In this document: positions 5,144-62,383 of the stretch, piece after piece | Layout: the number at the start of each line of letters is the position of its first letter | Position numbering within the stretch: the first letter of the stretch is position 1 | Sequence record: PV390658.1 | DNA: 64,000 bases | Reading direction: 5' to 3' (one strand) | Origin: Escherichia phage vB_EcoM_P54 | Program-made: the position numbers and the translations under genes | The notes under the pieces: generated by a model | The model's input: only the letters and a program-made list of their open reading frames with translations | What the model was told of the DNA's origin: nothing | Databases searched by the model: none

Positions 5144-5392
5144 TTATTTAACTTTTTTTGAGAAAATTAGTTTAACTGCAACTGTAGGAATCTCGTCAGC
5201 GGTTGTAACCAGCATTACTTTTTGAGTGACCAACTTATAACCGTTCTTTGCAGCGTATGCGGTAAAACGGTTGACATTGTAACTATAAGTTTTTGGTGTG
5301 TTGTCTGGCATGTGGTAAAGAAAAGGTTTACCCAAGTTTTCTTCTTGTGTCAATAGTCGGCAGGTATCAGGGACATTGAAATAGTTCATCAT
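5144..5392 (-). CDS. hypothetical early protein (82 aa)
   Basis: ATG at 5392 abutting a type B cassette. Confidence 0.6.
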   Translation of the reverse strand: MMNYFNVPDTCRLLTQEENLGKPFLYHMPDNTPKTYSYNVNRFTAYAAKNGYKLVTQKVMLVTTADEIPTVAVKLIFSKKVK

Positions 5393-5472
5393 TTTTTAAT
5401 CTCCTAGTTTAAGGACTGTGTAAAGCTCTTTATCTGGGGCTTAAGATACCAACTTTTTAAGCCCCTTGTAAA
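5393..5472 (-). promoter_or_regulatory. type B cassette
   Basis: TTTACA (5467-5472), GGGGCTTAA...TTAAGCCCC palindrome with TATCTT in the loop, SD. Confidence 0.45.
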
Positions 5473-5484
5473 GTACTTTATTAC

Positions 5485-5682
5485 TTAATTTTTGACAACT
5501 TTTAAAACTGCAAGATAACCTAAGCAATAAGAATCACCGAAGAGAGTTCTACCCATGAAAGAATCCTCTTTGATATCCTTTGCAGTGACAGTTTTTTCTA
5601 CGCCGTGGGAAAGGACTACATCACCAACTTTGATATCTTTGATGTGTGTTGTTTCAATGGTTAAGCCGTTAATAATAGCCAT
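5485..5682 (-). CDS. hypothetical early protein (65 aa)
   Basis: ATG at 5682 abutting a type A cassette. Confidence 0.55.
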   Translation of the reverse strand: MAIINGLTIETTHIKDIKVGDVVLSHGVEKTVTAKDIKEDSFMGRTLFGDSYCLGYLAVLKVVKN

Positions 5683-5776
5683 TTTAGAATCTCCTAGTTT
5701 AAGGACTTTACTTAGTGGGGAAGGTCATTCCCTCCCCGTTGATTAGTAATTTAATCTATCTAAAAATCAGTGTCAA
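5683..5776 (-). promoter_or_regulatory. type A cassette
   Basis: TTGACA (5771-5776), 17-nt spacer, TAAATT (5748-5753), hairpin and SD. Confidence 0.6.
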
Positions 5777-5783
5777 CATCTTT

Positions 5784-6188
5784 TTAAAGTTCTGCGTAGA
5801 TTGCATCACAGACATCACGGAAATCATGATTTGTTAAGTTACGTTGTAACCAAGTGGCAAAGAAATCAGCGATTGCAAAATTAGCGTCATACTCGACGGA
5901 TAGCCACACTTTAACAGCAAATCGGAACATCTTTAAATCCAGCTCTTTATTCATTACCTTTGATTTGCCTAACATGTCGGCCATCTCATGTTGTGCACCG
6001 TCTAGCGTGATACCGGCTGCAACGTCAGCCAATGAGTTTTTTACGCTTTCAACGTCTAAGATAACACTTTGAATCTTCCCAATAATGTTTTGCAGTGTTT
6101 CATCCGGTGCTGCTGATGTGATAACATTAATCCGGTTAACGGTCAAACGTGCTTTTAAGATAGATAACTCACGATTATTAATAGCCAT
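5784..6188 (-). CDS. hypothetical early protein (134 aa)
   Basis: ATG at 6188 abutting a type B cassette. Confidence 0.6.
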   Translation of the reverse strand: MAINNRELSILKARLTVNRINVITSAAPDETLQNIIGKIQSVILDVESVKNSLADVAAGITLDGAQHEMADMLGKSKVMNKELDLKMFRFAVKVWLSVEYDANFAIADFFATWLQRNLTNHDFRDVCDAIYAEL

Positions 6189-9600: not shown

Positions 9601-9671
9601 AAGCCCTCCTTACCTGAAAAATTTACCAGATAAGAAAGGCTTAGCCTATTGTGAATATTCTACAGAGTTTC

Positions 9672-10457
9672 TTAGTTCTTTGCGTCTAAGAAGGTTACTT
9701 CCGGTGAAGAGAAAATCTCCTCAACATCCTCATCAGTTCTTGCATAGATATATGTATCTGCATCGCTGCCAAATGTTACTGCAATTCTGTGATTGCTCTT
9801 CGACAGGTGGGTAACTAGAGCGTTACTTAGAGACATCTTTTCAACCGGAGGGTTACTTTGATGTATCTTGCCTTTTCTTCGTCTGAAGAGGGTAACTACA
9901 TCATTAGTGAACACTACTACACCAGCAAAGTATTCTGGTTCACAGTAGTTCTTCCAACCTGAGCGTAACTTGTGGTACATCTCTCCTTCATAGACATACA
10001 GATACACATCTACACTCTTCATCACCTGATTAATGATGACTGTGACGGCTTGAGAGTCTAGTCCACCGATACCTGCACCAATCATAGGTAACCCAACTTT
10101 CTTCAACTGATTGACTTCACAGTATCTGTTAAGCTGTTTCAAAGATGACTCTAAAGCACTGTATCGGGCATCTTTACCAGTCTTAAGCTGAGTGTAAAGG
10201 TTAGCTATACGGCCTTGTTCTAAACGTGCTACAGAGAAATTGCCTAGTAAATTTTCACAGGGTTTGTGACCTATACCACCTGCATACAGATAGACTTCTG
10301 TATCAGTCTCATATGCTTTTGGGTAAAGTTTAGAAATCTTGTCAGCGATACCTGCACCCATTAAATTCATACAGTTGCAACCGTGACCAATAATATCAAA
10401 CTTACCTTTATCAAATGCGGAGAAGATATCCCCATTGATGATTTTTACAATACCCAT
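9672..10457 (-). CDS. macrodomain-like protein (261 aa), putative ADP-ribose binding or hydrolase
   Basis: N-terminal VKIINGDIF...FDIIGHGCNCMNLMGAGIADKI and GLPMIGAGIGGLD resemble macrodomain motifs GDIT...DAIVNAAN...GGGV and ISTGIYG; extra C-terminal region of about 110 aa. Confidence 0.5.
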   Translation of the reverse strand: MGIVKIINGDIFSAFDKGKFDIIGHGCNCMNLMGAGIADKISKLYPKAYETDTEVYLYAGGIGHKPCENLLGNFSVARLEQGRIANLYTQLKTGKDARYSALESSLKQLNRYCEVNQLKKVGLPMIGAGIGGLDSQAVTVIINQVMKSVDVYLYVYEGEMYHKLRSGWKNYCEPEYFAGVVVFTNDVVTLFRRRKGKIHQSNPPVEKMSLSNALVTHLSKSNHRIAVTFGSDADTYIYARTDEDVEEIFSSPEVTFLDAKN

Positions 10458-10658
10458 TTAGCATCTCTCCCAAGATTCTTTATCTTCTGAAGGTTTTACA
10501 CGTTGTCCTTCGTGGTCTACCCAGATACATCCACAACCTTCACAGATTACTGGCATTGCATAGCCAGCTTTAAAGTCATCTTCAGTGATAAGACCTTTTA
10601 AGTCACCTGTATCACGTCCGAACATTTCGATAGCACAGTCTTTGCAGAAGTCAGCCAT
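10458..10658 (-). CDS. small Cys-rich protein (about 66 aa)
   Basis: CKDC ... CEGCGC motifs; start moved to ATG at 10658 with AAGAGG SD. Confidence 0.5.
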   Translation of the reverse strand: MADFCKDCAIEMFGRDTGDLKGLITEDDFKAGYAMPVICEGCGCIWVDHEGQRVKPSEDKESWERC

Positions 10659-10878
10659 GAATAATTGCCTCTTGAATGATGATACCTTTACCACAACGAC
10701 TTTTAAAGTCTTCTAATGGTTCAGAGATAAAGCCACGTAAACAGTCAGTGAATACTAAGTTCTTCCGGTAAGCTATCACATCATTTGCTGTAAATGGTAT
10801 GACCTCATTTCGTCCAATGAACACCGCTGAACTGATAAGTTTCCGTGTCTTTTTATCTCTGGCTAGTATTACTTTCAT
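10651..10878 (-). CDS. hypothetical protein (75 aa)
   Basis: ATG at 10878 with GAAGGT SD. Confidence 0.5.
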   Translation of the reverse strand: MKVILARDKKTRKLISSAVFIGRNEVIPFTANDVIAYRKNLVFTDCLRGFISEPLEDFKSRCGKGIIIQEAIIHG

Positions 10879-11179
10879 AGTTTACCTTCTCAGTTAGCTC
10901 ATATAAATCAACATGCTCAATACTATCAATGTTGATACTAATCTTTTTGAAGCGTTCTATCACTTCGTTGTCAGTCATCCATATCAGACACCAATGATTG
11001 TGGATGGATTCTTCAAGAAGGTCAACACAGTCTTTAAAAGTTTTTGTATCACTTCTTGTTCCGACTACTGCGATTGTCCCATACAACCACTTACCATTGC
11101 CATAAGATACTTGTGCTACGCCAACTTCTTTATCTTTCTCGTAGTAAACGGCTACAAAATCTCTTCCGTTAATCTGCAT
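10853..11179 (-). CDS. hypothetical protein (about 108 aa)
   Basis: ORF-track 10853..11218; ATG at 11179 has AGAGGA SD. Confidence 0.45.
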   Translation of the reverse strand: MQINGRDFVAVYYEKDKEVGVAQVSYGNGKWLYGTIAVVGTRSDTKTFKDCVDLLEESIHNHWCLIWMTDNEVIERFKKISINIDSIEHVDLYELTEKVNYESNTSQR

Positions 11180-11477
11180 TTGTAAGTTCCTCTGTTGGTA
11201 ATTCACCATTTTCAGCAAAGTACTGAAGGTATGGCAATAACTCTTTCACCTGTTCTTGGTTGAGTTTCATTCTTTGGTTACCTACAAAATCTTTGCCTAC
11301 TAATGCTGGGATATCAAGTGTTTTCCAGCCACCATCTAGGTACTGAACAGAGACCTCTTTAGCACCTAACCAGATACACGGTTCATATGATGAACTCTCT
11401 TGTAAAGTACAAATTTCCCCTTTAGCATCTTTAAATTCTGCATAAGAAAATCCACGATTTGTTGGCTGGAATTGCAT
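11169..11477 (-). CDS. hypothetical protein (about 102 aa)
   Basis: ORF-track start 11483 is GTG; first ATG at 11477. Confidence 0.5.
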   Translation of the reverse strand: MQFQPTNRGFSYAEFKDAKGEICTLQESSSYEPCIWLGAKEVSVQYLDGGWKTLDIPALVGKDFVGNQRMKLNQEQVKELLPYLQYFAENGELPTEELTNAD

Positions 11478-11479
11478 AA

Positions 11480-11749
11480 TCACTTCCTCGTTTTAAGAAC
11501 TGCTAAGATTTCTTTAGAGTCTGGTAAGAACCATGTGTAGTGATTCTCTTTGATTTCTGGATGAGTGTCAACCTTTATTTTGCACTCTTTACCAACATGC
11601 TTAAGCTGTGCTGTGACACCTTGCATAAAGATATGACACATCACGTTATCCATAATGGTTGGTGAGAAATCAACCCGCATATAAGTTTCTTTTGGTCGTG
11701 GTAGCAGTAAGTACCCTTCTACATAGAAAGTATCTTCATTCTCTGTCAT
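11480..11749 (-). CDS. hypothetical protein (89 aa)
   Basis: ATG at 11749 overlaps the upstream stop by ATGA. Confidence 0.5.
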   Translation of the reverse strand: MTENEDTFYVEGYLLLPRPKETYMRVDFSPTIMDNVMCHIFMQGVTAQLKHVGKECKIKVDTHPEIKENHYTWFLPDSKEILAVLKTRK

Positions 11750-12015
11750 TGCTGTTTGTTTCCTAATAAAATCATATCAATAAGGTTATTAGCTTTGATT
11801 GTGCACTGGTAAAAACCATCACGATAAAACTCAAGGGCTGCTGCCACATCACTACCAGTATTACCTTTGACAGTGAATCTTGACTCTTCTTGAGTGTACT
11901 TGTCACTCTCACTTACTTGGGAGTTTTTGAATGTACTGTTCACTTTGTTCGTTGAACACCCTGACATAATTATCAGTAACACAAACATTATAAAACTCTG
12001 GCTTAGTCTTTTCAT
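11746..12015 (-). CDS. putative o-spanin (outer-membrane lipoprotein, 89 aa)
   Basis: N-terminal signal peptide ending in a Cys lipobox-like site (LIIMSGC); lies in a different frame overlapping the 3-prime end of the i-spanin-like ORF. Confidence 0.5.
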   Translation of the reverse strand: MKRLSQSFIMFVLLIIMSGCSTNKVNSTFKNSQVSESDKYTQEESRFTVKGNTGSDVAAALEFYRDGFYQCTIKANNLIDMILLGNKQQ

Positions 12016-12256
12016 ATGTTAGTACCTCTTTTGTGTGCTTATTCTTAGCAAGCACGTCTTTCAAATCATTTTTGTAATTGGTGCTGAGTGTGGCTAAACC
12101 TTCCTGATAAGCATCTTTAGCAACACTTATTAGTTTCTCATTATTTAGCTCAGCTTCAGCAACTTGGTAGTCTCTGTAAGAGTATCCTCCCCAGACACCT
12201 GCTCCAACTAAGAAAACAATTATGAAAGTAGCTTGGCAGAACTCTTTAAATGTCAT
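11909..12256 (-). CDS. putative i-spanin (115 aa)
   Basis: Single N-terminal transmembrane segment then charged helical region; AGGAG SD before ATG at 12256. Confidence 0.5.
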   Translation of the reverse strand: MTFKEFCQATFIIVFLVGAGVWGGYSYRDYQVAEAELNNEKLISVAKDAYQEGLATLSTNYKNDLKDVLAKNKHTKEVLTYEKTKPEFYNVCVTDNYVRVFNEQSEQYIQKLPSK

Positions 12257-12275
12257 TTAACAATCTCCTGAAATG

Positions 12276-12296
12276 AAAAAGGCTCCCGAAGGAGCC
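12276..12296 (-). terminator. rho-independent terminator (minus strand)
   Basis: A-run then GGCTCC-CGAA-GGAGCC hairpin. Confidence 0.6.
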
Positions 12297-12308
12297 TGTA
12301 TCTTAACC

Positions 12309-12773
12309 TTAACTGAGGACTTTAGCAAGGATATTCGCAGCCATCGAAGAAGCTTTTGCAGCAGCAACTACGCCAGCTTTGACAGTGCCATCCTTAATAG
12401 CAGATACCGTTGCAGCATCAGTAAAGAGGTAAGTGATTGTTTTAGAACCACTTGTAAAGGAAAGCATAAGAGTAGTTTCCAGATTGAAAGAGCGATACGG
12501 AGCACCTTCTTTAACGATACCTTCAGCACCTAACTCTGAAGCCTTACCCATATCATAGATAGTCATCAGGTTTTCTTTGTGTGCAGTCGTTGAACCAGCA
12601 CCTTTTACGTGCTTTTTAACATTCAACAATGCACGGTATTCACGAATGCTGCCATCAGCTTTTACATTAACAGCACGAAAAATTTTACCTTCAAAATTAC
12701 CTTGAATCATTTTACGAACTACTTCAGATTTGTTTGCCGTATCGTCCAGTGCTACCGTAATGATATTGTTCAT
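12309..12773 (-). CDS. hypothetical protein (about 154 aa)
   Basis: ORF-track start 12788 is TTG; first ATG at 12773. Confidence 0.45.
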   Translation of the reverse strand: MNNIITVALDDTANKSEVVRKMIQGNFEGKIFRAVNVKADGSIREYRALLNVKKHVKGAGSTTAHKENLMTIYDMGKASELGAEGIVKEGAPYRSFNLETTLMLSFTSGSKTITYLFTDAATVSAIKDGTVKAGVVAAAKASSMAANILAKVLS

Positions 12774-12784
12774 AAGTTTTTCTC

Positions 12785-13480
12785 TCAATGTTTAACTAAC
12801 ATGGTTTTAATGTGTGGAAGGATTCTGTTTACCTTCTGAACATTCTTCTCTGTATCTTCTATAAAACATACTATATTAAAGTAAGGTAGAATGCAAGACT
12901 GAATCATCCTCACTTTCAAACTTTCTGCACTTATAGAGTTAGTTCCAAAACCACGCATAAAAAGCATGTAATCATGCTCTATGTAATGCCTTAAAAACAT
13001 CTCAGTAGGTACTCTCTGAGATTCACCCCTCGCTGTCAAGAGTCCAATGGCAGCATGATTAGAGATTGCATCAATAATATTGAAAACATATGTTGGTTTT
13101 GCACTTACAGAGTCAAGCAAATTAGTGTACTGTGAAAATGACCCATCAATCAGTTCCGTTGAGCAATCTTCGTGATTAAAATTTGTAAGAACACCATCAA
13201 TATCTGCTAAGATGAGGTTACCTTTTTCTACAAGGTCTTTATTGACTATGACTAAACTGTCACGTCTTACACCTATAGATTGCCCAGTCTCTTTATCCAC
13301 AACGTTCACAATTGGTTGTAATGTGTGGAACTCTTCAAGTGAACATACAACCTCTCTTGCAATGTCTTCAAAATCCCTGCACTGTTCTGGAGTCCATACA
13401 CAGTAATCGAGACCTAACTCATGAGGATGCAAGTCATAAGCATGGCACAATACTTCATCAGACTTTCTTAATTTTTTCAT
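12785..13480 (-). CDS. HAD-superfamily hydrolase-like protein (231 aa)
   Basis: Motif LILADIDGVLTNF matches the HAD motif I (hhhhDxDGhL). Confidence 0.5.
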   Translation of the reverse strand: MKKLRKSDEVLCHAYDLHPHELGLDYCVWTPEQCRDFEDIAREVVCSLEEFHTLQPIVNVVDKETGQSIGVRRDSLVIVNKDLVEKGNLILADIDGVLTNFNHEDCSTELIDGSFSQYTNLLDSVSAKPTYVFNIIDAISNHAAIGLLTARGESQRVPTEMFLRHYIEHDYMLFMRGFGTNSISAESLKVRMIQSCILPYFNIVCFIEDTEKNVQKVNRILPHIKTMLVKH

Positions 13481-14006
13481 GGTTTACCTTAGAAATGTTT
13501 GTTGCAAATTCACATTGAGCAATGACTTTCATATTGTTGTAGACATCTTGAGAATATTTCTTAGCTTTAGGGATTTTGTACGAATACCCAGCATTATATG
13601 ATGCTAAAACTTTTTGTAAAGTCTTCTTTGACTTTGGTTGACCATGTACCTTCGTCCAAAACTCAAGCTCTTTGTGTGTTTCCTTTGCAGCATAGTCAAA
13701 ATCTTTTAAGAGTTTCTTTTTAGCCACATTAGGACTGATTTTGTTACGCTTTACAACAGTCTTCAAGTGATTCTGGAAGATACCATAGTCATGGGTCTTT
13801 TTATTCTCTACCTTCAGACCTAACTCTGACTCTTGTAAGGCTATAGCAGCTAGAGTGATACCCCAACCTTTACCCATATTATTCTCACCATATTGGTAAG
13901 CTTTTAACATGTTTACTTTTTGGCTAATTGATAGCTCTGGGCAGTCAACTGCATAAGATAAGTGTGCTGTAAACATTAAGCACAAACCTAGAATCAACTT
14001 CTTCAT
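13458..14006 (-). CDS. secreted lytic transglycosylase-like protein (182 aa)
   Basis: Cleavable-looking signal peptide MKKLILGLCLMFTAHLSYA; QESELG...YGIFQ resembles the SLT ES...GLMQ catalytic motif; AGGAG SD. Confidence 0.45.
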   Translation of the reverse strand: MKKLILGLCLMFTAHLSYAVDCPELSISQKVNMLKAYQYGENNMGKGWGITLAAIALQESELGLKVENKKTHDYGIFQNHLKTVVKRNKISPNVAKKKLLKDFDYAAKETHKELEFWTKVHGQPKSKKTLQKVLASYNAGYSYKIPKAKKYSQDVYNNMKVIAQCEFATNISKVNHEKIKKV

Positions 14007-14065: not shown

Positions 14066-14095
14066 ATAAAAAAGGCCGCCGAAGCAGCCTTTTAA
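14066..14095 (-). terminator. hairpin terminator after rIIB
   Basis: AAAAGGC-loop-GCCTTTT inverted repeat with flanking A and T runs. Confidence 0.5.
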
Positions 14096-14106
14096 GAAAT
14101 TACTTA

Positions 14107-15216
14107 TTAGATTTCACGTTTACGTTGAGAGATAAGTTCACCAGCAGTGCCAACGATGACATGCAAAGCTTCAGTCTTACCGTCCCATGCTTTCAGCACT
14201 TTACGCTGATTATCAACGATTGCTGCAACTTCATAACGGGATGAGCGCATCTTCATATCGTTGTAATCAGTCGGAACAGATACAACATCTCGTGGATGGA
14301 CACGAACCTTCAGGATTGTATCACCTGAGAAGCAACGAACATAATCCCAAGCACCAACATGAAGACCCTGAGAGCAAGTTACGTTACGGTTGTTGTCAAC
14401 CATCCAACGTGGCATTTCTACAATGTTACCCAAATCATTAGGTACTTTGTAGGTGTGGGAGTCAACCAACTTGCCTTCACGAGTAGAGACTTTCTTCCAA
14501 CCAATGATGTAACCTTCTTCATCAATTTCAACATCAAGGTGAGATACGAATCCCCAAAGTTGTTCTACAGAATCTTTAGATGGGTTTTCCATCAGTTTTT
14601 CGAAGAACATTACAAGTCGTTCAAAACCTTTATCACCAGTCTTCATCATGTGAAGAATACGGTCAACCAGAGTAGAACGCATCTCAACAGCACCGTAGAA
14701 TAACTTGTCACCTTTGATTGTGATAGCACCCTGAGTGAAGTTTTCGATAGACTTACGAATGTTCATCAGTTCAAATGCTTTCTTGAACTCACCTTTCACA
14801 ACATGAACTACAATTTCTTGATAGTTCGGATGAGTAGACTCAACAATTTCAGATTCTGAACCATAAGTCATAATTACAGAGTCACCAGTAATCATGTACT
14901 CAATCTTGTCATCTTTCTGCATAGCTTCGTGCAGTTTATTTACTGGAACTTTCTGTACAGTGTCTTTAACAACCTTTTCAACTGGTTTTCCAGCTTTCTT
15001 TTTAACTGACTTAGCAACTTGCTTCAAAGTCTTCTTAGCTGCTGTCGAAGTTGCCTTTTTCTTACCCTTTAAGGTTGCTTCATGACGCTCTACAGCACGA
15101 CCAACTGAACGGGTTGAAGTGTTGAACTTCTGTGCAATAGCTGTTTTAGTCAGCTTGCCTTCTTTAACCAGTTTGTAAATTTCTGCGTCAATCTGTGCTT
15201 TAGTTTTAGTAGTCAT
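14107..15216 (-). CDS. rIIB: rIIB-like protein (369 aa)
   Basis: C-terminal VRVHPRDVVSVPTDYNDMKMRSSRYEV and TCSQGLHVGA match T4 rIIB as I recall it; adjacent to rIIA. Confidence 0.8.
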   Translation of the reverse strand: MTTKTKAQIDAEIYKLVKEGKLTKTAIAQKFNTSTRSVGRAVERHEATLKGKKKATSTAAKKTLKQVAKSVKKKAGKPVEKVVKDTVQKVPVNKLHEAMQKDDKIEYMITGDSVIMTYGSESEIVESTHPNYQEIVVHVVKGEFKKAFELMNIRKSIENFTQGAITIKGDKLFYGAVEMRSTLVDRILHMMKTGDKGFERLVMFFEKLMENPSKDSVEQLWGFVSHLDVEIDEEGYIIGWKKVSTREGKLVDSHTYKVPNDLGNIVEMPRWMVDNNRNVTCSQGLHVGAWDYVRCFSGDTILKVRVHPRDVVSVPTDYNDMKMRSSRYEVAAIVDNQRKVLKAWDGKTEALHVIVGTAGELISQRKREI

Positions 15217-15295: not shown

Positions 15296-17662
15296 TTAAT
15301 CGTAAATTGTAGTCCCTTCTGGAACACACTTCACATCAAAGCCTAAGAACTTACTCACTTCGATGGGTGACACTTTATTCCAATCTAAATGAGAAAGCAA
15401 GAAGTTTTCTTGTTTTCTTTTTGAAAGATAGTTTGTCACCTTAATGACCATACGGTCACCAGCTTTCTTGATTTTCTTGTACAGCTTTGTATCGTTGTCA
15501 AGGCATTCTTTCAAAGTTTGCAACCTGCTAACAGTGTAAGTGTATGCAAACGGTGCAGCAACGTATTGGATTTTACCAAACATTGCCTCAACAGCATCTT
15601 CATTACCTTCTAAGAAGATAGTTTTGTTTGTGTCTCGTGAATAGCAATAACCACGAGAAATCTTCCTGTTATTGAACGTAAAGTTTCTGGCAATAATCCA
15701 ACTGCTTGTCAGGTCTAGGACACCATTCATATAGATACGTGTCATATACCTGTTATGATTAATCCAGTGAACATCAGTTAAGCTGTCGTTCAAGAGCTTC
15801 TCATCTACTTCAATCCAGTCTTCTGGTATCTTTTTCCAATTTGCTTTTCGGAAAACATATACTGTCTTTCCAATGACATTGGCAACTGACTTAGCTACAT
15901 CTTCTGGAGATGAGCAAAAACATTCGCCATCAACTGTGTCGCCTACTGCCTTAATATAAAGCTGAGGCTCTTCAATCGTATCTAAGTCTTCTGACACCTC
16001 TTTGTATGAAGCTACACCTTCTGCTGGAACAGCTTTCCAAAGTTTTACAACACCTCTTACAGCTTCTTTACGCTGATAATGATGTTCCTTATCAGACATC
16101 TTCACAATCTTTAACAAGCTTTTATCAAGTTTGTGCAGATTGATTAGGTTGTCTAACTCTTTTTCAGTCGAGAATACAAAGACGATACCATTGTATCTGT
16201 GAAACAGACTAGACTCACTGGCATAGTCTCGACATGCACCACGCAGAATCTGATTGCGTCCTACAGTCTTCTCAGTACCATTTTTATTGCGACGGTCGTT
16301 TATAACAAACAAAAACTGCTCAATTTGACTTTTACGCATTGCGCCAAAGATATTGAACATACTTGCCTCTTGAGTGTAGGAAAGTGATGTTGCACGAATC
16401 TTACTCTCTAAAGAGTTGAACTTGACATAAGCAACTGGGTCATAAAGATAATCTACTTTAGGGATGTTGTTTCCGTTTCTATCAACCTTAATATTACCTT
16501 TGCCGTCACGTTCATAGATGACTGAGCCGTCTTCTGCGTAGATAATCCCACGACGAATGTTTAGTAATTCTTCTTCCAGAGAATCAAGCTTAACACCTCC
16601 CCACTCTAGCTTTGGACACACAGCATTAAACATCTCTCGTGAGTTTAAACGTAACTCAGCATAAGCCTGTGCAGCATCCATGAGTGTAGGTTGGCTATTA
16701 ACTTTCTTGATAACATCCTTTGTAATCGCTTCAGTTATCTTTTTAGTAGCCTCAATGATAACATTTTTTGTCGTATCATTCATCTGCAATGCTTCACGAG
16801 AAGCTGCAATAGCAACTGAACCAATAGGCATGTAGATGTTTACAAGGTCTACGCTCCTACGGAAAAATTCTGGCAAGACTTTGAAGAAATCATCTCCAAG
16901 TAATGCTTCCATGTTGACTGGATAGGCGATATTACCCATCACCACATTAAACTCTGTCCTGTTACCACTAGAACGCCAGCTTTGCTTATGAATCATGGCA
17001 TCATAGACACCTTCTTCACGGGCAATGACATTCATATCTGCTAATACATCGTCATACTCGATGTTACTTTCTGGTTTTACAGCAAAGTATGAGTATACAT
17101 GACCAGCTTCTTCAAAGAACTTTGAGATACGGTGGTCAGCAACTGCTACACGTACAGCTAAACCATTAGGCTCTTTTGTTGAGTTGGTGGTCAGCTTAGT
17201 TACTTGAGGGATACCATTCTCAAGGTAAACAGAGTACTTATTAACAACACCATCAACATAACTAGATACTGTGAATGACTGAGCAATTGCAAATGGAGAT
17301 TTTGAACCGATACCCATTGCACCAATGTAGTCATTAGAGTCATTCTTCGTAGAAGCCCCGTAATTTAGGTACAAACTCATAACTTTATCATGAGTCAATC
17401 CAGTTCCAAAATCACGAACTTCAAAGTAAGGTTCAAAACGAGTAGGTAAATGCACATGGAACGGGATGTTCTCTTTTCCAGCTTCTTTCTGAGCATCTAC
17501 TGCGTTACATGACAGTTCACGAATAACTGCCCTTTCTTTAAAGGTATATACACCAGAACTCAAAAGGCTGAACATTTCAGGTGTCATTGTAATCTGTGCT
17601 TGAGACGTCTCTAAAGAAGTTGAACTCTTAATCACTTCTGCGTGGTCGTTTACCATGCGCAT
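15296..17662 (-). CDS. rIIA: rIIA-like protein (788 aa)
   Basis: N-terminal GHKL-ATPase-like motifs (ELSCNAVDAQ, RDFGTGL, GAMGIGSKSPF); size and position upstream of rIIB. Confidence 0.75.
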   Translation of the reverse strand: MRMVNDHAEVIKSSTSLETSQAQITMTPEMFSLLSSGVYTFKERAVIRELSCNAVDAQKEAGKENIPFHVHLPTRFEPYFEVRDFGTGLTHDKVMSLYLNYGASTKNDSNDYIGAMGIGSKSPFAIAQSFTVSSYVDGVVNKYSVYLENGIPQVTKLTTNSTKEPNGLAVRVAVADHRISKFFEEAGHVYSYFAVKPESNIEYDDVLADMNVIAREEGVYDAMIHKQSWRSSGNRTEFNVVMGNIAYPVNMEALLGDDFFKVLPEFFRRSVDLVNIYMPIGSVAIAASREALQMNDTTKNVIIEATKKITEAITKDVIKKVNSQPTLMDAAQAYAELRLNSREMFNAVCPKLEWGGVKLDSLEEELLNIRRGIIYAEDGSVIYERDGKGNIKVDRNGNNIPKVDYLYDPVAYVKFNSLESKIRATSLSYTQEASMFNIFGAMRKSQIEQFLFVINDRRNKNGTEKTVGRNQILRGACRDYASESSLFHRYNGIVFVFSTEKELDNLINLHKLDKSLLKIVKMSDKEHHYQRKEAVRGVVKLWKAVPAEGVASYKEVSEDLDTIEEPQLYIKAVGDTVDGECFCSSPEDVAKSVANVIGKTVYVFRKANWKKIPEDWIEVDEKLLNDSLTDVHWINHNRYMTRIYMNGVLDLTSSWIIARNFTFNNRKISRGYCYSRDTNKTIFLEGNEDAVEAMFGKIQYVAAPFAYTYTVSRLQTLKECLDNDTKLYKKIKKAGDRMVIKVTNYLSKRKQENFLLSHLDWNKVSPIEVSKFLGFDVKCVPEGTTIYD

Positions 17663-42694: not shown

Positions 42695-42870
42695 ATAGGT
42701 TATATAGTCTCTGGGGAAGGATGGGTAAAGACTCTGATTGGAACCTACTAAAAACAAACGTAAAAAGTAATGAGATAGCGTACTACAAAATTCATTACTA
42801 CAAAACTTTCAGAGAGCTTGAGTATCGTGAACAACAGACAGGAGAAGTATTATGTGGAAATCAGTAATTG
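42691..42870 (+). CDS. small hypothetical protein (59 aa)
   Basis: Not in the ORF track; ATGA overlap with the upstream gene; 3-prime end overlaps the next SD. Confidence 0.3.
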
Positions 42871-43088
42871 TGCTTGGTGTTATTTTTCTAGCTGGCTGCA
42901 ACCCTTCTTATGAAGATAAAAATGCTTCTTATAGCCTCCCACCAGAGATGCAAGATTGCAAAGTCTATAAGTTGCATGGTGATGCCATAAGTAGAGATAT
43001 TGTTGTTGTCAGATGTCCAAACTCTCAAACAACAACATCTTATAGTTATGGAAAAAATGGTCAATCACACACTACGGTTATTGAGTGA
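42852..43088 (+). CDS. small lipoprotein (78 aa)
   Basis: Signal peptide VIVLGVIFLAGC with lipobox LAGC; strong AGGAGAAG SD. Confidence 0.55.
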   Translation: MWKSVIVLGVIFLAGCNPSYEDKNASYSLPPEMQDCKVYKLHGDAISRDIVVVRCPNSQTTTSYSYGKNGQSHTTVIE

Positions 43089-50099: not shown

Positions 50100-50471
50100 T
50101 TACTTTTCAGTATTCTTTGTGTTCTTTTCAGTAATAGCTTGGAGGGCTGATACTGATTGAGCCAGATTGTTCACACTATCAGAGAATTTATCAAGAGTCT
50201 TAGTAAGTTTTGCGTTCTCACCCTTAACATTCTCTAACTGGACTTTCTGGTTCTCCATCCCTAGCTGAAGCAGCCTCATATCAGACTGTAAATCACGAAT
50301 AGCTGAATAATTACTTTTGGAATAATTATCTAACTGCTGTAACTTTGTTGTGATAGACACTTCTTGCTTACCATCCGAGACTTGCATGGTGGTATACATC
50401 CCAATAACACTAAAAATACCAACTACAATTGCACCAATATTATTTTTAAAAGCTTCCTCTAGCCACTTCAT
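50100..50471 (-). CDS. membrane-anchored coiled-coil protein (123 aa)
   Basis: N-terminal transmembrane helix IGAIVVGIFSVIGMY then heptad-rich region. Confidence 0.5.
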   Translation of the reverse strand: MKWLEEAFKNNIGAIVVGIFSVIGMYTTMQVSDGKQEVSITTKLQQLDNYSKSNYSAIRDLQSDMRLLQLGMENQKVQLENVKGENAKLTKTLDKFSDSVNNLAQSVSALQAITEKNTKNTEK

Positions 50472-50665
50472 TTATTCTCCCCCTTAAAAGCTTTTTCTAA
50501 GTTATCTACGAACTCATCATCAATAGGTGTGTCTGTTTTACTCGCAAGGTATCTTGCAAGCCTAAAGAACACTTTCTCAATCATGTATTCACTTAGAAGG
50601 GATAAAATGAGTTTCCAGAAGAAGCTACCTAGATTTTTTAGAAGAATTGCTAGGATTGTAGGCAT
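50468..50665 (-). CDS. small membrane protein (65 aa), holin-like topology
   Basis: Hydrophobic N-terminus and charged C-terminus; just downstream of the tail fiber genes. Confidence 0.4.
   Translation of the reverse strand: MPTILAILLKNLGSFFWKLILSLLSEYMIEKVFFRLARYLASKTDTPIDDEFVDNLEKAFKGENK

Positions 50666-54367: not shown

Positions 54368-62383
<8,016 letters not shown>

Follow-up and report, generated by a model that had tools for sequence, protein, structure and literature searches.

A gene pair on the minus strand of Escherichia phage vB_EcoM_P54 very probably encodes an overlapped spanin of the Felix O1 family

Two small genes which share part of their DNA at 11746..12256 of Escherichia phage vB_EcoM_P54 (PV390658.1) raise the question of whether both are real and, if so, what their products do and how the pair is placed relative to the other lysis genes. 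A preliminary description of the stretch of 64,000 nt which was analysed (the window) had named ORF 11909..12256 an i-spanin and ORF 11746..12015 an o-spanin. The PHROG families, the labels given to the genes of related phages and the SpaninDB entry for Felix O1 agree with these names, and we are highly confident that the pair codes for a two-component spanin which is ‘overlapped’ in its architecture and belongs to the Felix O1 family.

Both ORFs were found at exactly these coordinates on the minus strand, which had been left unstated. The i-spanin gene (11909..12256) starts with ATG, encodes 115 AA, belongs to phrog_1152 and has annotated relatives. The o-spanin gene (11746..12015) likewise starts with ATG and encodes a precursor of 89 AA, of which 70 AA form the mature protein. 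The overlap of about 107 nt in different frames which had been described is a dual-coding segment of 107 nt (11909..12015, minus strand), and the o-spanin ORF is in the +1 frame with respect to the i-spanin ORF with a start offset of 241 nt. The segment holds the i-spanin’s residues 81-115 and stop codon, as well as residues 1-36 of the o-spanin, which run from the signal peptide across the lipobox into the start of the mature protein. In overlapped spanins the 3’ part of the i-spanin gene contains the start of the o-spanin gene, which is in another frame and runs past the i-spanin stop codon; this arrangement is found here. Each gene has its own Shine-Dalgarno sequence on the minus strand: AGGAG at 12265..12269 with a spacer of 8 nt to the ATG of the i-spanin gene, and GAGG at 12025..12028, inside the i-spanin coding sequence, with a spacer of 9 nt to the ATG of the o-spanin gene. 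The o-spanin stop codon shares the sequence ATGA (11746..11749) with the ATG of the next gene. A consensus scan for terminator-like hairpins gave hits at 14093..14070, 12297..12280 and 9642..9601. The second of these, a putative terminator consisting of a GC-rich hairpin and a T run (12280..12297, minus strand), is located between the upstream gene, the stop codon of which is at 12309..12311, and the ribosome-binding site of the i-spanin gene. The motif TTTCATTTCAGGAG after this hairpin was examined as a possible repeat; it has 3 matches versus 1.1 expected and 12 of 100 shuffles gave an equal result, which is not significant.

The 4-kb stretch around the pair is 95-97% identical to dozens of Felixounavirus phages of Escherichia, Salmonella and Shigella. 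The window is a Felixounavirus genome which is closely related to Felix O1 but distinct from it. The i-spanin matches phrog_1152 ‘Rz-like spanin’ with an E-value of 8.9e-42. For the o-spanin, the matches are phrog_4180 (8.7e-51), a family without assigned function, and phrog_456 ‘Rz-like spanin’ (6.1e-5). Scans of both proteins against Pfam and NCBIfam returned sub-threshold matches only. Near-identical genes are labelled i-spanin and o-spanin in CRP22 (gp_107 and gp_108), in SME50 (SME50_064 and SME50_065) and in many more records; i-spanin genes of relatives which are 97-100% identical carry the label i-spanin or Rz-like spanin. In SpaninDB, Felix O1 (NC_005282.1) is assigned to class ‘ovl’ (Kongari et al. 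2018, PMC6139136), with the i-spanin p014 at 5330..5678 (115 AA) and the o-spanin at 5571..5841 (89 AA, mature 70), an overlap of 107 nt and the ribosome-binding context tttttcatttcAGGAGattgttaa (PMC6139136). The genes studied here have the same protein lengths (115 AA and 89 AA, 70 mature), the same 107-nt overlap in the +1 frame and the same ribosome-binding context as those of NC_005282.1, from which they differ by few point substitutions; only four i-spanin residues differ from those given in the supplement. An overlap of 107 nt is given for Felix01, FO1a, FSL_SP-010 and FSL_SP-012 as well, and the tabulated groups of identical overlapped spanins include one made up of Felix01, FO1a and UAB_phi87 (Kongari et al. 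2018, PMC6139136).

For comparison, 29 related loci with an i-spanin identity of 76-100% were taken from viral metagenome contigs of IMG/VR. The distant set consisted of Hafnia phage SarahDanielle, the podovirus phiEco32 and Erwinia phage M7, the i-spanins of which are 27-35% identical in the alignment.

The first protein had been described as anchored at its N-terminus, and a single hydrophobic stretch is indeed predicted. The putative transmembrane segment FCQATFIIVFLVGAGVWGG (12185..12241, minus strand) corresponds to codons 6-24 and is the best Kyte-Doolittle window of 19 residues (mean 1.75). Outside residues 6-24 the protein is polar and 30% of its residues are charged. Judged from its sequence, the i-spanin is predicted to be anchored in the inner membrane by its N-terminus and to have its C-terminal domain in the periplasm, i.e., to be of type II topology. 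Its sole periplasmic cysteine, Cys92 (11981..11983, minus strand), is invariant in the homologues from Felixounavirus, Hafnia, phiEco32 and Erwinia M7. The residues invariant in the distant alignment include EK, F88, N90, C92, Y97, F101 and N102, all of the C-terminal block, and YEKTKPxFYNxCxTDxY..FNE at the C-terminus is the most conserved segment of the protein; therefore, the DNA that codes for it also codes for the o-spanin signal peptide and lipobox. A single-sequence AlphaFold2 model of low confidence (mean pLDDT 51) has helices at residues 27-71 and 103-111 and short strands within 78-101. For Felix O1, the periplasmic domain of the i-spanin is taken to begin at R28, the secondary-structure table gives 66% helix and 10% strand, and the protein is without a coiled-coil segment in the coiled-coil table (Kongari et al. 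2018, PMC6139136). The label ‘helical’ for the i-spanin is thus based on a low-confidence model together with this published secondary-structure table, and the protein may be called helical only tentatively.

The N-terminus of the o-spanin reads MKRLSQSFIMFVLLIIMSGC, followed by Ser, and contains a signal peptide. The lipobox M17-S18-G19-C20 (11956..11967, minus strand) is part of the PROSITE PS51257-type match MFVLLIIMSGC, in which Cys20 (11958..11956) is the predicted lipidation site with Ser at position +2. In this sense the lipoprotein with a lipobox-like Cys which had been proposed passes the PROSITE rule. The strict consensus [LVI][ASTVI][GAS]C is not matched because position -3 is Met; o-spanin lipoboxes deviating from the consensus are documented (Kongari et al. 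2018, PMC6139136). An alignment of five sequences shows no variation at Cys20 and Ser21. The lipobox is ISGC in 2 IMG/VR relatives, and MSGC, MSAC or TASC in the distant phages. Besides the lipidated residue, the mature protein (70 AA, zero proline) has a sole cysteine, Cys71 (11803..11805, minus strand), located in the conserved motif EFYRDxFYxC..N.L. Cys71 is invariant in the alignment and present in 32/32 relatives; in the distant alignment C20, S21, C71 and parts of the motif are the invariant o-spanin residues. Each of the two proteins consequently has one periplasmic cysteine, C92 in the i-spanin and C71 in the o-spanin. Periplasmic cysteines for intermolecular disulfide bonds occur in 507 of the 528 catalogued spanin systems (Kongari et al. 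2018, PMC6139136). A unimolecular spanin (u-spanin) of the T1 gp11 type was rejected, as the o-spanin ends with ...NLIDMILLGNKQQ and lacks a C-terminal hydrophobic segment of membrane length, and a separate i-spanin partner exists.

Each of the 29 IMG/VR relatives retains the two frames intact (28/28 distinct Felixounavirus sequences). Scanning the plus strand of the loci for lipoboxes gave an overlapped lipoprotein ORF just downstream of the i-spanin homologue in 32/32 loci, and only two extra matches in total; the three distant relatives retain this ORF with the same C-terminal motif. Since the pair is kept in the 29 IMG/VR relatives and the lipoprotein ORF in three distant phages, the pair is more than a chance arrangement. 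Nucleotide diversity at codon positions 1, 2 and 3 is 0.080/0.056/0.226 in the i-only part, counted in the i-frame, and 0.083/0.053/0.324 in the o-only part, counted in the o-frame. The mean diversity of the overlap is 0.054 versus 0.120 (i-only) and 0.155 (o-only) in the flanking single-coding parts, and within the overlap there is no excess of diversity at third codon positions. A diversity peak for each frame together with lower diversity in the overlap is the pattern expected of two real coding genes with a dual-coding segment. Both frames are under purifying selection at the protein level, with an extra constraint in the overlap.

The preliminary description had further stated that the pair is not next to an obvious holin/endolysin cassette and that lysis functions appear dispersed. 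The gene annotated as ‘holin’ in SME50 (SME50_003) maps to 50100..50471 on the minus strand with 99% identity, ~38 kb from the spanin genes. In its product of 123 AA, a single transmembrane segment at the N-terminus is followed by a long polar tail; the PHROG of this product has no function assigned. The SME50 ‘lysin’ (SME50_102) is a protein of 154 AA encoded at SME50 57898..58362, the N-terminal region of which we take, by eye, to be T4-type lysozyme-like. It has no tblastn match within the 64-kb window. The left end of the window corresponds to SME50 position about 54273, hence, the lysin gene is located ~3.6 kb outside, beyond that left end, and ~15.5 kb from the spanin genes. With the putative holin gene this far off and the lysin gene outside the window, the dispersed layout stands; scattered lysis genes without a cassette have also been published for Felix O1-like phages in a genome announcement of 2015.

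On the minus strand upstream of the pair (11746..12256, both genes), an rIIA-like gene (15296..17662), an rIIB-like gene (14107..15216), a gene for a signal-peptide protein (13458..14006), one for a ‘polynucleotide kinase’ family protein (12785..13480) and, adjoining the pair, one for a protein without assigned function (12309..12788) are found. Downstream on the same strand, five small genes without assigned function (10458..11749) are followed by that of a macro-domain ‘phosphatase’ (9672..10457). The spanin genes are part of a long run of small function-unassigned genes downstream of rIIA and rIIB, away from late and lysis genes. The gene at 13458..14006 had been named as the nearest lysis-like gene, encoding a secreted transglycosylase-like protein. 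To call it lysis-like is reasonable as a tentative label; its likeness to a transglycosylase is weak, and the endolysin recognised in this phage group is a different protein. The product has a signal-like hydrophobic stretch at its N-terminus and a sub-threshold match to Pfam SLT (E 0.0012, 18.8 bits versus a cut-off of 21.3), and we presume by eye that ES in ALQESELG, GIFQ and YNAG are family-1 lytic transglycosylase motifs. Its PHROG has no function assigned, and a sequence search against the PDB gave no match. In the Hafnia phage, the corresponding cluster opens with a gene labelled lytic transglycosylase domain protein, a counterpart by position only.

When the six reading frames of the window were scanned for lipoboxes, seven ORFs were obtained, of which only two have an ATG and a Shine-Dalgarno-like sequence, namely the o-spanin gene and 42852..43088. 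The latter, with the lipobox LAGC, was considered as an alternative spanin and rejected because no membrane-anchored partner lies upstream of it and its product has no transmembrane segment at the C-terminus. A second two-gene spanin candidate was not found within the window.

Three other explanations have to be weighed against an overlapped spanin. That only the 115-AA gene is real and the 89-AA ORF a chance frame with a fortuitous lipobox-like Cys might be suspected from several GenBank records in which the 89-AA ORF is absent or shortened to a start at an internal GTG. However, overlapped o-spanin genes are systematically overlooked by gene-calling programs (Kongari et al. 2018, PMC6139136), and the data for the o-frame contradict a chance frame: diversity at codon position 3 outside the overlap is about four- to six-fold higher than at the other two positions (0.324 versus 0.083 and 0.053), synonymous codon differences outnumber nonsynonymous ones (368 versus 124), and the ORF with its own Shine-Dalgarno sequence keeps the lipobox Cys and the C-terminal motif in each of the 32 relatives. 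The probability left for a chance frame is negligible. A slight probability, somewhat larger, is given to the idea that other genes disrupt the outer membrane, either 50100..50471, whose membrane-anchored, coiled product has an i-spanin-like layout, or the second lipoprotein gene 42852..43088, so that the spanin pair would be redundant or vestigial. Yet a distance of 7 kb separates these two genes, which are on opposite strands and both lack an adjacent partner, whereas clear purifying selection acts on the pair at 11746..12256, which for this reason is not vestigial.

It is also improbable, if a little less so, that the pair serves some envelope function unrelated to lysis, for instance superinfection exclusion or receptor masking, and is expressed with the early-region genes. 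Small phage lipoproteins such as T5 Llp act in superinfection exclusion and receptor masking. The position of the pair among small function-unassigned genes near rIIA/rIIB and the macro-domain ‘phosphatase’, far from endolysin and putative holin, would suit such a role, as would an o-spanin without the proline-rich region of lambda Rz1; moreover, the literature search returned neither experimental lysis data for a Felix O1-type pair nor any published experimental test of Felix O1-type spanins, including complementation of a lambda Rz/Rz1 defect. Against this, an anchored protein combined with an out-of-frame overlapping lipoprotein gene is the defining signature of spanins, it is kept down to 27% identity in myoviruses and a podovirus, and the pair is the sole one of its kind found in the 64-kb window. 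Furthermore, the T4 spanin genes are likewise found among early genes. T4-family o-spanins likewise are without a proline-rich region (Kongari et al. 2018, PMC6139136). Points against a spanin are the proline-free mature o-spanin, the Felix O1 i-spanin without a listed coiled coil, the missing similarity to T4 PseT.3 and PseT.2, the Met at lipobox position -3 and the location remote from late and lysis genes. An overlapped two-component spanin remains the best explanation, and from family membership we infer that the pair would function in lysis.

Compared with lambda Rz/Rz1, the pair is predicted to have the same general composition: a type II inner-membrane protein, an outer-membrane lipoprotein for which the same DNA is read in the +1 frame, periplasmic cysteines in both proteins and a presumed role in the last step of lysis. 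However, lambda Rz1 is wholly embedded in Rz, whereas the genes here overlap by 107 nt only. Mature lambda Rz1 contains an essential penta-proline stretch, in contrast to the proline-free mature o-spanin, and the Felix O1 i-spanin is without a predicted coiled coil. Membership of the o-spanin in the lambda Rz1 sequence family was therefore rejected, since the proline-rich region with the central penta-proline is absent; the functional class is still shared.

T4 PseT.3/PseT.2 resembles the pair in that its spanin genes are found in the early region beside a gene of the polynucleotide kinase/phosphatase type. The holin and endolysin genes of T4, t and e, are away from its spanin genes. However, the T4 genes are ‘separated’, with a junction overlap of 4 nt only versus 107 nt here, and the numbers of periplasmic cysteines are 0 and 2 versus 1 and 1. 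Homology to PseT.3/PseT.2 was rejected based on BLASTP E-values of 17 and 8.3, and the neighbouring ‘kinase’ resembles only the phosphatase half of T4 PseT, weakly (E 0.04). With spanins that lack similarity to PseT.3/PseT.2 and a weak ‘kinase’ match, synteny with T4 was dropped as evidence.

The pair gp39/gp38 of the phiEco32 group (Kuravirus) is closer. Its i-spanin (about 27-34% identity) and o-spanin (about 25%) are homologous to those described here, the same invariant Cys and motifs are found, and the two genes overlap and are followed by a macro-domain gene. Differences are the podovirus background and the overlap, which is 116 nt as called (2679..2794 in L035) versus 107 nt. In the GenBank record both genes are hypothetical and gp38 is called shorter; the phiEco32-related phage KBNP1711 is listed among the overlapped o-spanins (Kongari et al. 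2018, PMC6139136).

The mechanism proposed for the pair follows the model which Kongari et al. 2018 (PMC6139136) summarise for lambda Rz/Rz1, and localisation, complex formation, disulfide bonding and the role in lysis are accordingly stated by analogy. The i-spanin of 115 AA would be anchored in the inner membrane by its N-terminal segment, with ~88 residues reaching into the periplasm. The precursor of 89 AA would be exported, lipidated at Cys20 and cut by signal peptidase II. As residue +2 is Ser and not Asp, the o-spanin would be sorted to the outer membrane, where it is expected in the inner leaflet. The periplasmic domains of both proteins may then bind to each other, giving a complex which spans the periplasm through the peptidoglycan mesh. 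Once holin and endolysin, encoded elsewhere, have degraded the wall, the spanin complexes would be free to move and would disrupt the outer membrane, probably by fusion with the inner membrane, whereby lysis would be completed. Given exactly one invariant periplasmic cysteine per subunit, a heterotypic disulfide bond could join i-spanin and o-spanin, in contrast to lambda Rz and Rz1, which form homodimeric disulfides. In view of a proline-free o-spanin with a conserved and probably folded C-terminal motif, and of an i-spanin which has no predicted coiled coil and is most conserved at its C-terminus, the Felix O1/phiEco32 family might represent a structurally distinct spanin bridge, possibly with such a heterotypic bond; this is a speculative idea which we consider rather unlikely.

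Both the spanin pair and the scattered lysis genes are already known: the former from the catalogue of Kongari et al., the latter from the genome announcement for Felix O1-like phages. The preliminary description was therefore correct but ordinary. The pair is a textbook overlapped spanin and adds little beyond a correct annotation. Such an annotation is of use in so far as many GenBank records of these phages, which are widely used for biocontrol, have one or both genes as ‘hypothetical’ or the labels swapped, and some start the o-spanin at an internal GTG, whereby the signal peptide is lost. The comparison of sequences supports the ATG-initiated product of 89 AA as the probable o-spanin of these phages.

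Both genes of the spanin pair, the i-spanin gene (11909..12256, minus strand) and the o-spanin gene overlapping it (11746..12015, minus strand), were left hypothetical in the records of many relatives, and some of the existing calls are faulty. The o-spanin gene of CRP22 (L001 2247..2444) was called from an internal GTG, which gives a product of 65 aa and removes the signal peptide, and the i-spanin of Hafnia phage SarahDanielle (L034 2468..2818) is mislabelled 'putative o-spanin'. A comparative paper ascribes 'only the i-spanin gene' to one Felixounavirus (PMC8300805), which is probably a gene-calling miss. A copy of the o-spanin gene, 93% identical to that of the window, was found at 125936..126202 of GU169904.1, a record named Staphylococcus phage SA1. 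Such Felix O1-like DNA comes from a Gram-negative phage, and finding it under a Staphylococcus phage name points to an assembly that is mixed or mislabelled. The DNA matches also include one record each from a Campylobacter and a Listeria phage.

Terminator-like hairpins on the minus strand at 12280..12297 and 9601..9642 are followed by the nearly identical tail GCTTTTTCATTTCAGGA. Behind the hairpin at 12280..12297, this tail is directly continuous with the ribosome-binding site of the i-spanin gene, and the space between the hairpin and this site is too short for a promoter. The hairpin-tail motif was counted three times in the window versus 1.1 expected, which is not significant.

The gene at 13458..14006 (minus strand), flanked by rIIB and a kinase-like gene, encodes a signal-peptide protein and putative secreted transglycosylase, distinct from the lysozyme-type endolysin. 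Its Pfam SLT match is sub-threshold (18.8 bits versus a cut-off of 21.3), it carries ES, GIFQ and YNAG motifs, which we take to be lytic transglycosylase-like, and a sequence search of the PDB with this protein gave no matches. The gene annotated 'holin' in the relative SME50 (window 50100..50471, minus strand) encodes 123 aa with a single N-terminal transmembrane segment followed by a long polar, repeat-like tail; because the product falls in phrog_4038, a family with no assigned function, the label looks unsupported by family evidence. It is preceded, with 4 nt shared, by a 65-aa gene (50468..50665, minus strand) whose product also has a hydrophobic segment at its start. The gene for a second small lipoprotein of the window (42852..43088, plus strand; 78 aa) has a strong ribosome-binding site, AGGAG, and its product contains the canonical lipobox LAGC, two cysteines besides that of the lipobox, and belongs to phrog_902, likewise without assigned function. 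Neither an upstream membrane-anchored partner nor a C-terminal transmembrane segment was found, and it was therefore rejected as a spanin; the product could be a lipoprotein of the superinfection-exclusion type.

The kinase-like neighbour, a 'polynucleotide kinase' family protein (12785..13480, minus strand; phrog_3970), is weakly similar to T4 PseT in the phosphatase half only (E 0.04, around a DxDG motif). In the T4 region L037 7003..8782, pseT likewise has spanin genes, pseT.3 and pseT.2, next to it. The neighbourhood common to both phages may nevertheless be coincidental, because the spanins of the window have no similarity to PseT.3 and PseT.2.

A macro-domain 'phosphatase' gene was found downstream of the spanin pair in three settings. 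In the window it lies five genes downstream (9672..10457, minus strand). Its counterparts in two other phages follow the pair immediately: that of Erwinia phage M7 (L036 2995..3777) has 43% identity (E 1e-39) and that of the podovirus phiEco32 (L035 2939..3379) 25% identity (E 1e-9). The linkage of spanin pair and macro-domain gene is kept across unrelated virion types.
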